64,000 bases of DNA, from NCBI GenBank assembly GCA_964016885.1, contig OZ024749.1, positions 54,932,001 to 54,996,000 on the forward strand, in the 5' to 3' direction. This DNA is from Eledone cirrhosa (Eukaryota). How positions within the stretch are numbered: the stretch's first letter is position 1; each line of letters opens with the position of its first letter. The translations under genes and the position numbers were made by a program. The notes beneath the pieces were generated by a model, which searched no databases, was not told where the DNA came from, and saw only the letters and a program-made list of their open reading frames with translations. Of the stretch, positions 50,434-59,888 are shown piece after piece.

Positions 50434-51142
50434 ATATACATACACAAGAATTTGTTACAGCCTCGGATGATTTGGGTTGCGGTTTGTTGCTATCGTAGTT
50501 AAAGACACCAAAAGGGTGACAAGGAAATCTAATCTGGGCAGGATTTGAACACAGAGCGAACAAGGCCGTAACTATGCTACAAAGCATGTTTTCCGACATC
50601 TCTAAGACAGAACGAATAATGCAAAGCATTGTATCGGATCTTCTAAGGACAGCTCCAATAATTCGCCGCCTACGTAGATATGTAGGGCAGCATATATTAC
50701 TTGGTAGAGTTCGATAAATTAATGATGAGACTAGGAAATAGAATGAAATAAATCAAAGAAAATGAATATATTAGATATTAGGAGAGATAAAAGAAGCGGA
50801 ATGGAATTAAAACGGGGAAAAGACAAAACAATTGCCAGAATGAGTTGACTGAGGGCTAGAATATAAAGTGGTGAAGGTGAAGGGGGGGGGGGGTGAATGA
50901 GGAGGTGAAGGAGGAGGCGAAAAAAGGGGGCGGGGTGAAGGGGGAGGGGATGTGAAGGGGGAGGTGAATGAGGAGGGGAAGGGGGAGGGAGGAAGATATT
51001 GACAAAGATGATTACTTACATGATAAGGAAGATGATGATGATGAGGGGGTTAAAACGTTGAGGAATGTGAGGGAAGCGATGATGATTAAGGATGATGCTG
51101 ACGATGAAGAATATAAGAGAAATGTTGAGGATGGACGACGAC

Positions 51143-51368
51143 GATGGTGGTGGTGGTGGTGGTGGTGTTGGTACAGGTGAGGTTGATATCACCGATGGTG
51201 GTGGTGGTGGTGGTAGAGGTGTTGGTACAGGTGAGGTTGATATCACCGATGGTGGTGGTGGTGGTAGAGGTGTTGGTACAGGTGAGGTTGATATCACCGA
51301 TGGTGGTGGTGGTGGTGGTGGTGGTGGTGGTAGAGGTGTTGGTACAGGTGAGGTTGATATCACCGATG
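51143..51368. repeat. 4-copy minisatellite with variable (GGT)n spacer
   Basis: GGTGTTGGTACAGGTGAGGTTGATATCACCGATG x4, separated by (GGT)n AGA. Confidence 0.9.
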
Positions 51369-51439
51369 ACGACAATGATAATGATTGAAAGTAGTAGTAG
51401 TAGTAAGAGGAGTAGCAGCAGCGACAGACAGCACCAATA

Positions 51440-52397
<958 letters not shown>

Positions 52398-52658
52398 GTG
52401 AGTACATTTTCCTTTAACTACAAATTATTATTATATACTTTCGTCTTTTCATTAACTTAATTAATTTCAAATAACCAGAATATACATATATATATATATA
52501 TACTCATATTTATATATATACGCTTCTCACTCACACACAAGAAAAACAAAAAACAAAAACAAAAAAAAAAAAAATAAATAAATCAAAAATAAATTTAAAA
52601 AAAAAAATATATATATATTGAAATACTTAACTAAAACACACACACACTCAAAACTAGA

Positions 52659-53813
52659 ATGGCTAACCAGCAAAAATCCAAACAGAACTGGTCTGATAAT
52701 GAAATCGACATTCTAATAAACACATGGCATTGCCTTTCCCAAACAGAAAATATAGATGCTTCATCTCTGAACGACATTGCTAAACGTACAGTTCAATTTT
52801 TGAAAACTCGATCTGAACAACAGATTCAAAATAAATTAAAGCAAATCGAAATTGCTTTTAAATTAATCAATAAACATTTGGATAAACTACGGTGTGTTTT
52901 CTCTTCGAATGCTGTCCAGCAGCAGCAACAACAACAACAGCAGCTACAACAGCAACAACAACAACAGCTACAACAACAACATCAACAACAGCTACAACAA
53001 CAACATCAACAACAGCAACAACAACAGTGTGAACCACTCCTTGATTCATCAACAATGGCCGATCTACTAAATGAAACTATTGACCCCCCAGTAGCCTCTG
53101 TCTCACAGCATGAAACGCCACATCCTTTCTCTGGCCCAGCAGTCCAATCATCACCACTGCCAACATCTCTGCCTACTACTACTACAACATTTTTGTCTAC
53201 TGCTATGTCAAGGAATTTACCTTCTAATACCAGAACAAGAACTCTCCCTCCCACAGTCCACAAAGGTCGTCAAATCCTACCCAAACCATCATCTACACCT
53301 CTCACAACACCCACACCCATATACCCACCCACTCGAAACCCCATCATTTGCCGCTACTCTCTACGCTATAGAATATGTACGGATAGTGGCTGCAAATTCA
53401 CCCATTTACCTAGGACAAAACGATCTATCCCCACAAACAGCCACCACCATAATACATACTCTAATTTAACACCAACACAACCACCAATAACTCAAACAAG
53501 GAATCCACAAATCTGCCGTTTTTCCCTGCGAGACAGATTGTGTTTAGACCGGGATTGTCCCTTTACCCATCTCCCGGGGACCCGTCGGATAAATGAAAAT
53601 AAAATTAAAAATAAAAGCAAAAACAAAAACCATAACCTACATAAAAATAACCACTACCACAGTCACCAACAGTCTTCTAAACAGGAAACTTCTTCTTCCT
53701 CTTTTTTAGCCATAATGAATCTGGCAAAAGAACTGGAAAAAAACATTCGAGCTATCACCCAGCACCACCCTCCACTATCACCCCACTGCACAAACTCCCA
53801 TTGCTGCCATTAA
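52659..53813 (+). CDS. LINE ORF1: Myb/SANT-like N-terminus, polyQ, Pro/Thr linker, two CCCH zinc fingers
   Basis: 384-aa ATG ORF; NWSDNEIDILINTW...RSEQQIQNKLK; C-x8-C-x4-C-x3-H at 53349-53405 and 53514-53570. Confidence 0.85.
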   Translation: MANQQKSKQNWSDNEIDILINTWHCLSQTENIDASSLNDIAKRTVQFLKTRSEQQIQNKLKQIEIAFKLINKHLDKLRCVFSSNAVQQQQQQQQQLQQQQQQQLQQQHQQQLQQQHQQQQQQQCEPLLDSSTMADLLNETIDPPVASVSQHETPHPFSGPAVQSSPLPTSLPTTTTTFLSTAMSRNLPSNTRTRTLPPTVHKGRQILPKPSSTPLTTPTPIYPPTRNPIICRYSLRYRICTDSGCKFTHLPRTKRSIPTNSHHHNTYSNLTPTQPPITQTRNPQICRFSLRDRLCLDRDCPFTHLPGTRRINENKIKNKSKNKNHNLHKNNHYHSHQQSSKQETSSSSFLAIMNLAKELEKNIRAITQHHPPLSPHCTNSHCCH

Positions 53814-56800
53814 CAAACAAACAAATTAACAACACACCAAAACAATTAAAACCATCCACTCTCGCCTCTACATTTTTGCTTAACGCCCAAGGCATCAGCC
53901 CTTCCACCAATACTCAAAAATGGAAGATCAAATTCCTGGAGGACTGGATTGATGTCCATCCAAACCACATCCCTTTCTTCGTCCTCACTGAAACCCATCT
54001 CAGTAACCTCCACTTGGAAGCCGAGGTGAAAGTGAAAAATTTCAAAGCCATCCGTGCTGATCGCGCTGGCAGAAGAAAGGGCGGAACTGCCATTTATGTC
54101 CATAATTCTTTCTCAACAGAGGCTATGAACATATTCACTAATGGATACTGTGAGGCAGTCACTGTATTCAGTCAAACCAACAACCTATTAGTAGTTGGGC
54201 TCTATAGGCCACCCCAAACGCCTGTACCATGCTTCAAGGAATGCCTCAACAGCATAAAGTGTTTCATCCAAGAGTGTCACCCTGACAACATCTTAATGAT
54301 GGGGGACTTCAACCTCCCCGGAGTTGACTGGTCCACAAACACCCTGCCACCAGGTTCTTCTGCCTCAACCTCTGACAGGGAAGCTGTGGAATCGCTTCTT
54401 GACTTCATGGATGATTTCTTCCTATCCCAACTAGTGCTCGAACCAACGAGGTGCCACAAAAACGTCCTAGACTTAATTTTCAGCAATCACACTGACAATA
54501 TCCACAATATTGCAGTGGAGAAAACTCTACTCTCTGATCATGACATGGTTCTCTGTGATCTGAGATTCCACCGTCCAATATACAAACCCAATGTCATTTC
54601 TCCTGTCCATCCGTTTGACGCTATGGATTTCCACAATGCAAACTGGGAAGCGATCAGTCATGATCTTGCACATGTCGACTGGTCCTTCACGCACACTCAT
54701 ACACCCACTAACATCAAAAAGTCCTGGCAGACATTTGTGGACACTGTTACAAACATATGTGCTAAACACACCCCATTAAGAACTATAAACAAATCTAAGA
54801 GCAGAATCCCTAGAAATAGAAAAACGCTCATCAGAAAAATTAAGAGAACGAACAAAAAAATCAACAATCTGAAATACTGTCAGCAGCAACACATCAACTT
54901 GACTGCCATTTCATCACTGGAGATTAAAAAACATAACCTCCAAAACAACATAATGTCCCTCATCAACAATCAGAGAAGAGCTGAAGAGGCCTGGGCCATT
55001 GAGAAGATCAAACTCAATCCCAAAGTGTTCTTTTCATTTGCAAAAAAACACAAAATCACTGGCTCTACTGTTGGCCCTCTAATTGATGAAAATGGCACTC
55101 TTCAAGACAATGCTAAAACCATGGGTGAGATACTGCAGAAACAATACTGCTCTGTTTTCAGCAATCCTGATATGGCCGATCTGGGCTGTATCGGCGATGT
55201 TACTCCCCATTACACCTTATCGGACATAACGTTTGGCGCCCCTGATGTCTTGGCGGCAATAAAGGAAATCAAGCATAATTCAGCAGTAGGTCCCGATAGG
55301 TTCCCTGCTTGTGTCTTGAAGGCGTGTCAACACCAACTTGCTTCTCCTCTTGCCAATCTGTGGCGGAACTCACTGGATGCTGGATATGTGCCAGAAAACC
55401 TTCTATCCCAGTCTGTTGTCCCAGTTTTCAAAAAGGGAAACAAATCCCTTGCCGTGAATTACCGTCCAATCTCACTCACCTCTCATATCATTAAGGTATT
55501 TGAGCGAGTGGTGAGATCGCGAATGACCCACTTCCTTGAGAGTAACAATATGCTGAACTCCAACCAGCATGGATTCCGTAATGGAAGGGATTGCCTGACG
55601 CAACTACTGCATCACTTTGATGACATTTTGAGAGCCTTGGGAGAGGGTTCCAACACTGATGTTATCTACCTTGATTTCAGCAAGGCCTTTGACAGGGTTG
55701 ATCATAACATTCTACTGAGAAAGCTGTCCAATATTGGTGTCACTGGAAAGCTGCTGCAGTGGATCAAGAGCTTCCTGTCAAACAGAACCCAACATGTTGT
55801 AGTTGAGGGAGTCAAATCAAGCCCAGCCAAAGTCAGTAGTGGAGTCCCACAAGGCACTGTGTTGGGCCCACTTCTCTTCATCATCTATATTAATGACATC
55901 ACTGACATCATCAAACACAGCAACATTAAAATTTTCGCTGATGATTCCAAGCTCCAAAAGGTCATCAATGGCGTGGATGACCGGATAGGCCTTCAGTCAG
56001 ACCTACTGGCTGTTACCCAATGGGCAGAAAAGAACAACATGTTACTGAACGAAGACAAATTCGAACTGATCCACTTTGGAAAAGAGGATGCTCTGAAACT
56101 CCCGTACTCCCTTCCCTCCGGGGAAACTCTCGTGGCATCTAACAACATCAGAGACTTGGGAGTAACCGTGGACAGCAACATAAGCTGGACCACGCATATA
56201 AGCAGCAAAGTTGACATGGCCCGCAGAATGTGTTCCTGGATCCTCAGAACCTTCCAGTCGAGAGATTCCCGCACCATTATCCTTCTCTTCTCTACTTTCG
56301 CCCGACCACACCTTGAATACTGTTGTCCACTGTGGTCTCCCCACACGAAACAAAGTATCATGAAACTTGAAGCTCCTCAAAGGGCAATCACGAAAAAGAT
56401 AGATGGCATGTCAGACCTTGACTACTGGGGTCGATTGGAAAACCTGAAACTTTACTCACTCCAACGTCGCCGTGAGCGTTATATTATCTGCATGATGTGG
56501 AAAATGTTCCATCATCACTGCCCAAATGATGTTGGCATCGCCTTCAAGATACACCCAAGGCTTGGGCCCCGTGCTATCCGTCCCATTCAAAAATCTAAAT
56601 CGCAACTCATAACAACAATACGGCACAATTATTTCACCTCAATCGGCCCTGCTCTCTTCAACATCACACCAGGACACGTCAAAACAGAAACTGACCACAC
56701 AAAATTCAAGAAGTCTTTGGACAAATTCCTCCAAGTAATCCCGGACAAACCACCCACACCCGGATATGTCTCCGCAAACAGTAATTCTCTTCTCGAATGG

Positions 56801-56821
56801 GCCATGGTGCCCAAATCCTGA
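53681..56821 (+). CDS. LINE ORF2: apurinic-like endonuclease plus reverse transcriptase (frame open from 53681; true start uncertain)
   Basis: APE motifs LLNAQG, LTETHL, LYRPP, MGDFN, LDLIF, SDH; RT motifs [33 protein letters not shown]; no stops or frameshifts. Confidence 0.95.
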
Positions 56822-56908
56822 ATTGAAAGACTTCGCCAGGTGGTGCTATTAAGTTAGACATGGCCTGGGCCAATACTGGCCAAAACATTTCAAAGTTATT
56901 CAAAGTTA

Positions 56909-57121
56909 TATATATATACATACATATATACATATATACATACATATATATATATATACATATATACATACATATATATATATATATATATACATACATA
57001 TATATATATATACATATATACATACATATATATATATATACATATATACATACATATATATATATATATATATACATACATATATATATATATATATACA
57101 TACATACATATATATATATAT

Positions 57122-57152
<31 letters not shown>

Positions 57153-57227
57153 CATACATATATATATATATATATATACATACATATATATATATATATA
57201 TATACATACATATATATATATATATAT

Positions 57228-57258
<31 letters not shown>

Positions 57259-57446
57259 CATACATATATACATATATACATATATACATACATATATATA
57301 TATATACATACATATATATATATATATATATACATACATATATATATATATACATATATACATACATATATATATATATATATATACATACATATATATA
57401 TATATATATATACATACATATATATATATATATATATACATACATA

Positions 57447-57486
<40 letters not shown>

Positions 57487-57589
57487 CATACATATATATA
57501 TATATATATACATACATATATATATATATATATACATACATATATATATATATACATATATACATACATATATATATATATATACATAC

Positions 57590-57620
<31 letters not shown>

Positions 57621-57683
57621 CATACATACATACATATATATATATACATACATACATACACATACATACATATATATATATAC

Positions 57684-57714
<31 letters not shown>

Positions 57715-57805
57715 CATACATACATACATATATATATATATATACATACATACATATATATATACATACATACATACATATATATATACATACATATATA
57801 TATAC

Positions 57806-57881
<76 letters not shown>

Positions 57882-58060
57882 ACATACATACATATATATA
57901 CATACATACATATATATACATATATATATATACATACATACATACATATACATACATATACATACATACATATATATATACATACATACATATACATACA
58001 TACATATATATATACATACATACATATATATATACATACATATATATATATACATACATA

Positions 58061-58092
<32 letters not shown>

Positions 58093-58211
58093 CATATATA
58101 TACATACATACATATATATACATACATACATATATATACATACATACATATATATACATACATACATATATATACATACATACATACATATACATACATA
58201 CATATATATAC

Positions 58212-58250
<39 letters not shown>

Positions 58251-58324
58251 CATATATATACATACATACACATACATACATACATACATATATATACATA
58301 CATACACATACATACATACATACA

Positions 58325-58418
<94 letters not shown>

Positions 58419-58669
58419 CATACATATATATATACATACATATATATATACATACATATATATATACATACATATATATATACATACATATATATATACA
58501 TACATATATATATACATACATATATATATACATACATATATATATACATACATATATATATACATACATATATATATACATACATATATATATACATACA
58601 TATATATATACATACATATATATATACATACATATATATATATATATATACATACATATATATATATAT

Positions 58670-58700
<31 letters not shown>

Positions 58701-58721
58701 CATACATATATATATATATAT

Positions 58722-58772
<51 letters not shown>

Positions 58773-58909
58773 CATACATATATATATATATATATACATA
58801 CATATATATATATATATATACATACATATATATATATATATATACATACATATATATATATATATATATACATACATATATATATATATATATATACATA
58901 CATATATAT

Positions 58910-58942
<33 letters not shown>

Positions 58943-58975
58943 CATACATATATATATACATACATACATATATAT

Positions 58976-59008
<33 letters not shown>

Positions 59009-59251
59009 CATACATATATATATATATATATACATACATATATATATATATATATACATACATATATATATATATATATACATACATATATATATATATA
59101 TATACATACATATATATATATATATATACATACATATATATATATATATATATACATACATATATATATACATACATATATATATATATATATATACATA
59201 CATATATATATACATACATATATATATACATACATATATATATATATATAC

Positions 59252-59285
<34 letters not shown>

Positions 59286-59488
59286 ACATATACATATATA
59301 TATATACATATATATATATACATATACATACATATATATACATATACATACATATATATACATATACATATATATACATATACATATATATATACATACA
59401 TATATACATATATACATATATACATACATATAAACATATATACATACATACATATAAACATATATACATACATACATATATATATATA
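56909..59488. repeat. ~2.6-kb (TA)n/(CATA)n array, right flank of the LINE
   Basis: Direct inspection. Confidence 0.9.
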
Positions 59489-59888
59489 ACCCAAATCAAA
59501 TTAAAATGTAAAAATGAATTAAACTGAAATCAATATGAAAAGGTGTCTATACACACACACGTACGTACGTGTGTGTGCGTGTGTTATTTTATATACTTTA
59601 ATAAAAAAAAAAAAAATAATTTCTAAAGAAAATACAATAACCCCTCCACCCACCATAATAGAGGAAGGAAGTTTAAAGAAGAGAAGTTCATTAAATATTA
59701 CTAAACATCGGCAATGTTAAATGATTTATGAGAGATAACCATGCGATAAGAAAGGGAAATTATGGTGGCAGTCATCAAACCTAGCCTGCTAGACTTTCCA
59801 TTCTATTAACTCATCTCACCTGCTCTTGGTGCCAGGAACGGAAAGGGATCTTCTGTGTATTTCTTTTTTCCATTTACTATATATATAT

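Follow-up and report, generated by a model that had tools for sequence, protein, structure and literature searches.

The element and its two reading frames

The window analysed here is a stretch of 64,000 nucleotides (nt) from Eledone cirrhosa (GenBank assembly GCA_964016885.1, contig OZ024749.1, positions 54,932,001 to 54,996,000, forward strand). On its + strand, at positions 52398-56908, it holds a near-complete long interspersed nuclear element (LINE) with TA/TACA microsatellite on both sides. The two open reading frames (ORFs) of this element overlap, and the way in which the second one is translated is the subject of this report. The parts that bear most directly on it are the following.

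52659-53813, + strand: ORF1, 384 amino acids (aa), from the ATG at 52659 to the TAA at 53813
53681-56821, + strand: ORF2 frame, −1 relative to ORF1, 1046 codons from stop to stop, with matches to Pfam PF03372, PF14529 and PF00078
53702-53708, + strand: slippery heptamer T_TTT_TTA (Phe-Leu in ORF1), the putative −1 frameshift site, conserved in the clade
53738-53744, + strand: second phased heptamer A_AAA_AAC, specific to this family and a possible secondary site, missing at this place in the relatives compared

The element is a LINE of the apurinic endonuclease (APE) type: ORF2 encodes APE and then reverse transcriptase (RT), an ORF1 lies upstream, the 3' tail is a short tandem repeat, and 5'-truncated copies occur. 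Downstream of the first heptamer, ORF2 runs through a linker of about 58 aa rich in Ser, Thr, Pro and Asn before the two enzymes, and it matches the structure of L1 ORF2p (8sxt) with an E value of 4e-22. ORF1 is composed of a weak Myb/SANT-like N-terminus (aa 9-74 match Pfam PF13837 with an E value of 0.0023, which falls short of the curated cut-off), a poly-Q tract, two Cys/His finger-like repeats identified by reading the sequence, an 'FL + helix' motif and a short tail.

A sequence-only reading of the window had placed ORF2 in the −1 frame, open from 53681 and overlapping ORF1 by 133 nt, with its first in-frame ATG (54125) 3' of the endonuclease motifs LLNAQG and LTETHL. The coordinates and the position of this ATG were both confirmed. 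No ORF2 ATG is found near 53811-53813, so the window does not have the UAAUG overlap of the SART1 type. When all of ORF1 was scanned for X_XXY_YYZ in its own phase, T_TTT_TTA and A_AAA_AAC were the only matches, and both lie within the overlap, as had been reported. The fusion protein of about 1387 aa that had been proposed was recomputed as 1387 aa, and this predicted length is the same for either heptamer.

A DNA search of the animal's own genome gave 1479 candidates, from which 40 were scored and 29 other copies were fetched; these are the best matches and hence biased towards identity. Apart from one TCT codon, the junction of the window is present base for base in all 29. An exact-pattern count over the same genome found six T, which gives the overlap, in 612 copies and seven T, which gives a fused frame, in 6 copies. 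Because of the 29 shared junctions and these counts, the window copy is not an indel mutant, and that explanation was ruled out. The overlap layout is the master form of the family, the one that transposes. The six fused copies differ in their variant sets and, judged from these, seem to have arisen by a separate slip of one base each. Elsewhere in the genome open frames as long as 1120-1580 aa occur, which are mostly no fusions: 11 of the 12 that were fetched proved to be 5'-truncated copies running into the microsatellite, and the remaining one was a seven-T fusion. The LINE is young and active in this 3-Gb animal genome, with more than 600 junction-bearing copies.

The slippery heptamer in diverged relatives

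Diverged relatives were collected by a metagenome scan (19 of 64 parts; the best 80 of 460 relatives) and by a second search of the own genome. The viral contigs searched gave no relatives, and the contigs of prokaryote genomes gave four distant loci, which were uninformative. In a quick tree of the APE domain (78 rows, with 5 short rows left out), the window falls in a clade of 29 rows that holds the heptamer elements, with a support of 99 in the Shimodaira-Hasegawa-like approximate likelihood ratio test (SH-aLRT). Five rows of the clade could not be scored, since four contigs begin inside or past the overlap and L094 shows neither ORF1 nor the site in its short upstream DNA. The 24 rows that bear the junction and were scored consist of the window, 21 metagenome loci and two other families of the same genome (L179 and L164, copies chosen for an intact junction). 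Their pairwise APE identity ranges between 25 and 78%, with a median of 32%.

In all 24 elements ORF1 has an 'xFL + helix' motif and overlaps ORF2 in −1 phase. T_TTT_TTA, phased in ORF1, stands at this motif in 21 of them, compared to an expectation of 0.54 of 24 calculated from the codon use of each element, and the same codons are used at none of 68 other FL dipeptides in ORF2 (22 elements). Because of this excess and of the 0/68, selection acts on the nucleotides. On these comparisons the conservation of the heptamer exceeds any amino-acid need and does not reflect a protein constraint, and chance is excluded for T_TTT_TTA by its conservation across the clade. The frameshift that the sequence-only reading had put forward is thereby supported at the codon level. 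Its second heptamer fared differently: A_AAA_AAC was not shared by the clade relatives compared, being seen in the window's family only, and it was ruled out as a conserved site. The FL motif is also kept in five further ORF1 proteins, at the protein level only.

The frame that encodes ORF2 shows a similar pattern. It opens 0-42 nt 5' of the heptamer in 23 of the 24 elements and 78 nt 5' of it in one, and from the heptamer to the ORF1 stop it remains open for 36-203 codons in every element, so that this region is dual coding. Upstream of the site, the density of stops in the −1 frame is ordinary (0.03-0.16 per codon). Synonymous shuffles of the ORF1 frame gave a joint log10 P of −35.7 for the open −1 frame, a value that is an index and not a probability, as the rows are related. 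In fifteen elements the ORF2 frame reaches the first APE motif without an ATG. About ten elements have their ORF1 stop within this motif, and the distance from the stop to APE, −4 to +65 nt, is unconserved.

The proposed frameshifting and the alternatives to it

Low-level −1 frameshifting on U_UUU_UUA, yielding the 1387-aa ORF1-ORF2 fusion, is very probably the way in which ORF2 is made. Most ribosomes would stay in frame and complete ORF1p with its C-terminal helix. A minority would slip back by one base on U_UUU_UUA (53702-53708), with tRNA-Phe and tRNA-Leu moving together as on the HIV-1 site. Shifted at Phe-Leu (...SSSFL/SHNESGK), these ribosomes would read the low-complexity linker and then APE-RT. 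The predicted product is composed of ORF1 residues 1-350, the 58-aa linker and APE-RT, and it would not have the C-terminal helix of ORF1. Such a frameshift would set a high ratio of ORF1p to ORF2p, and the fusion would tether the N-terminal and finger domains of ORF1 to the enzyme. The best reading of these sequences is that a known mechanism, programmed −1 frameshifting, operates in a barely documented setting, a sub-clade of CR1 elements. None of the three sequence-level observations that the sequence-only reading had named as able to overturn its proposal was made: in the family form no AUG precedes LLNAQG and the ORFs are not fused, and the heptamer is conserved.

U_UUU_UUA is the shift site of HIV-1 (PMC5009743, PMC4373837). 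As in HIV-1 gag-pol according to those sources, the heptamer has the same seven bases and is phased to the upstream ORF, the enzyme is encoded in the −1 frame without an AUG, and a G usually comes after the heptamer. The element differs in being a non-LTR (long terminal repeat) retrotransposon that encodes APE-RT and no protease; moreover, HIV-1 has a stem-loop, whereas the LINE clade has no conserved stem-loop and the window's family has none. Closer in kind are TRE5-A and TRE3-A of Dictyostelium, also non-LTR elements with APE-RT, the ORF2 of which is said, in a figure legend of a review, to need a −1 frameshift (PMC5911963). These are amoebozoan elements that target tRNA genes, and the legend gives neither a slippery site nor an assay, in contrast to the defined heptamer that is conserved across an animal CR1 sub-clade here. 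The sequence-only reading had held that studied LINEs use termination-reinitiation, which stands for L1 and SART1, but a −1 frameshift is not without precedent among LINEs, given the statement on TRE5-A/TRE3-A in that review. The frameshifting of HeT-A gag is noted in PMC5009743, where L1 ORF2 is regarded as a case of initiation. The frameshifting covered in PMC11835228 is retroviral only. The translation of LINE ORF2 is called an open question in the review PMC3894237. A search of open-licence papers, which do not cover most of the subscription literature or Repbase Reports, turned up no description of a slippery site that is conserved among LINEs of animals.

Several observations weigh against this reading. 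The other three scored elements have variants that differ by one or two bases, G_TTT_TTA, T_TTT_TTG and T_TTT_CTG, one each; these fit tandem slippage less well, above all the T_TTT_CTG of L073, the closest relative. The clade member L094, with about 200 nt of upstream DNA, shows neither ORF1 nor the heptamer site there. Nine of the 24 elements do have an in-frame ATG, at scattered places upstream of the first APE motif or inside it; among six relatives inspected, L095 has a SART1-like UAAUG. An AG directly follows the T run in 19 of 24 elements, where it can also be read as a splice acceptor. No local stimulator is found in the window's family (z −0.3; fold of 92 nt −7.2 kcal/mol), and 18 of 24 elements have no downstream fold of z ≤ −2. 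Finally, 21 of the 24 scored elements are metagenome-contig loci, which may be active or not. A protein in which ORF1 is joined via FL + helix to ORF2 (P0029) is probably a gene-model join and was not counted as support.

The AG after the T run is the basis of a splicing model, in which the conserved TTTTTTAG serves as a 3' splice acceptor and ORF2 is read from a spliced RNA that joins an upstream exon to 53710. In the window a pyrimidine run precedes the site (64% of 25 nt), which there resembles an acceptor strongly, and a GTGAGT, a splice-donor-like hexamer, opens the 5' untranslated region (UTR) remnant at 52398. This donor, however, would bring in the AUG at 53715, which is in the ORF1 frame. 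Five of the 24 elements do not have the AG, and the upstream pyrimidine share, 0.24-0.64, is mostly below 0.5. An acceptor would tolerate C in its tract and favour CAG, whereas the T run is nearly invariant. Moreover, of some 620 genomic copies just 2 carry a base other than T at the position three bases before the exon start; both are T-to-C point changes, and no spliced retrocopy was seen. The contigs of four runs of unknown kind gave no joint into 53710 among the matches listed, which is not evidence on splicing or expression. Splicing is an improbable source of ORF2.

The second alternative is termination-reinitiation: ribosomes that have finished ORF1 would start ORF2 on a non-AUG codon beyond the stop of ORF1, and the heptamer would have another role. 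Near-cognate codons are found in frame after the stop (ATT at 53825, TTG at 53876), reinitiation has been described for SART1, with an AUG, and for L1, with AUG independence (PMC2881922, PMC1965478, PMC10275272), and L095 has its UAAUG. In common with SART1 and human L1, the element is a bicistronic LINE RNA; in those two a low ORF2 output depends on ORF1 translation (PMC2881922 and PMC3894237). The difference is that they use termination-reinitiation to make a separate ORF2p, whereas here the −1 overlap is long, an AUG is missing and the predicted product is a fusion. Reinitiation leaves unexplained the codon-level conservation of U_UUU_UUA 36-203 codons before the stop, and it gives no reason for a −1 frame that is open back to the heptamer and yet no further. 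It is also made awkward by the ORF1 stop, the position of which is often within the first APE motif and the distance of which to APE varies as given above. We give this route a small chance of being correct.

The 6 genomic copies with seven T, which are fused in frame, recall a third alternative, in which RNA polymerase slips on T6 and adds one U, so that a fused mRNA is already made at transcription. The RNA on which LINE proteins act is mostly their own, and new copies should therefore derive from T7 RNA, yet 612 of 618 copies have T6. Slippage of this kind does not need the site to be phased to ORF1 codons, which it is in every scored case. It is very improbable that ORF2 is expressed in this way.

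As for frameshifting itself, the stimulator seems to vary between lineages: judged from predicted folds, one subgroup has a local stem-loop 6-7 nt 3' of the site, and none is detectable in the window's family. The features concerned in the window are these.

53709-53725, + strand: weak 4-bp hairpin GCCA..TGGC immediately 3' of the heptamer, no credible stimulator
53761-53769, + strand: AGCACCACC, complementary to GGTGGTGCT at 56839-56847 in the element's own 3' UTR

The small hairpin after the first site, pointed out by the sequence-only reading, is present and as weak as the fold values of the window given above. The efficiency of frameshifting in this family is predicted to be low, because no stimulator is detectable there. 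Folds with z ≤ −2 were looked for in a segment of 50 nt that begins 5 nt 3' of the heptamer; 6 of 24 elements have one, compared to 10 of 192 control windows (p 0.026). A consensus stem was searched for across the clade with RNAalifold and was found in one of five subgroups only. In this subgroup the stem begins 6-7 nt 3' of the heptamer; it is common to L087, L103 and L095, with a single change that affects both sides and falls on synonymous positions, and L091 and L096 have the same 5' arm with a nearer pairing partner. The stem of the first three (L087:704-770, L103:75-141, L095:1497-1563) has 10 bp and a loop, GCGAA, that is complementary to a downstream TTCGC. A pseudoknot is possible in L087, L103 and L095, as modelled from these sequences, five rows in all.

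Pairing over a long distance was looked for as well. The 9-bp helix between 53761-53769 and 56839-56847, 52 nt from the heptamer, is the best of 28 ORF2 windows (rank p 0.02-0.08). Over eight elements, pairing of the region 3' of the slip site with the far 3' end had a combined p of 0.011 by one control, but of 0.18 and 0.13 by the two further controls. The complementarity possibly forms a long-range helix, an idea of the BYDV type.

The seven-base signal, kept at about 32% endonuclease identity, would name a mechanism unlike the reinitiation of the tested cases L1 and SART1, and this mechanism is directly testable by one synonymous mutation. If the predicted Gag-Pol-like fusion is true, ORF2 annotations that start from the first AUG would be truncated. 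The clade also supplies a large set of natural U_UUU_UUA sites, some of which have a stimulator and some not.

Classification, wider occurrence and further parts of the element

The closest labelled relative is a family from Octopus sinensis, O.sinensis_33_LINE, with which 152 of 157 RT residues are identical and 5 differ in a by-eye comparison (supplement 23 of PMC10294476). This family of 69 members is labelled Jockey/CR1 in supplement 19 of the same paper, where it was classed as CR1 by a tree and the RT alone was classified. Because the RT is near-identical to that of a family so classed, the element belongs to the CR1 clade (Jockey superfamily), an assignment that goes through RT sequence compared by eye. 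Proto2, a first guess, was rejected, as the Proto2 RTs in supplement 23 carry different motifs. The word 'frameshift' is absent from the main text of PMC10294476. The named protein relatives are from a ctenophore and a crab.

Outside the heptamer clade, 15 loci were found with a long ORF1 that overlaps in −1 phase, and 9 of these, all CR1-like, have a phased A_AAA_AAC (L105, L127, L117, L121, L122, L147, L144, L145, L120). Eight A_AAA_AAC loci have it at a K-N-L/M motif, compared to 0.76 expected from codon use, and of 36 other K-N pairs a single one is encoded in this way; the eight were picked for having A_AAA_AAC and form two subgroups, so that this is a lead only. Strong stem folds lie 7-8 nt 3' of A_AAA_AAC in L117, L121 and L122. 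A broader proposal is that −1 frameshifting is a main and ancient ORF2 route of CR1-group LINEs, with U_UUU_UUA fixed in one deep clade and A_AAA_AAC in other CR1-like lineages. The working transposase would then be a Gag-Pol-like ORF1-ORF2 fusion, and the stimulators would be lineage-specific (a stem-loop or pseudoknot, or pairing with the own 3' UTR). We regard this proposal as evenly balanced between right and wrong.

Two more CR1 families of the same genome, B (L179-L182) and C (L164, L194-L196), both have the T_TTT_TTA junction. Family B has many intact frames of 1076 codons, and three fetched copies of family C are all interrupted. The 3' UTR of both is similar to that of the window, with a G-rich motif, a hairpin and a short tandem tail. 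The N-terminal modules of ORF1 vary in the clade, while the fingers and the FL-helix are common to all compared. A Myb/SANT-like N-terminus is found in the window's family (52659-52880) and apparently in family B (L182), and a Cys-rich, PHD-like region occupies this place in other members (compared: L076, L079, L086, L090, L095, L164).

The ends of the element are as follows.

52398-52658, + strand: 5' UTR remnant, the last unit of a repeated 5' monomer; other copies reach further 5', with the unit repeated
56822-56908, + strand: 3' UTR, for which two hairpins are predicted, with two TTCAAAGTTA units as its tail; TA/TACA microsatellite comes next

The window copy is 5'-truncated against the TA/TACA microsatellite. 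In longer copies (L002, L006, L009-L016) the 5' UTR is a tandem array of monomers about 260 nt long, and a donor-like GTGAGT is present in every monomer. Copies of these families very often lie inside TA/TACA microsatellite (window 51440-52397 and 56909-59490, and many other loci), which suggests that (TA)n is a preferred target. In X1, a run of unknown kind, the summed contig depth is about 40-fold higher over 53480-53775, the end of ORF1, than over ORF2, a kind of depth that cannot rank gene parts. Further 5' of the element, a short GC-rich tandem repeat made of GGT runs and a unit of about 35 nt occupies 51140-51370.

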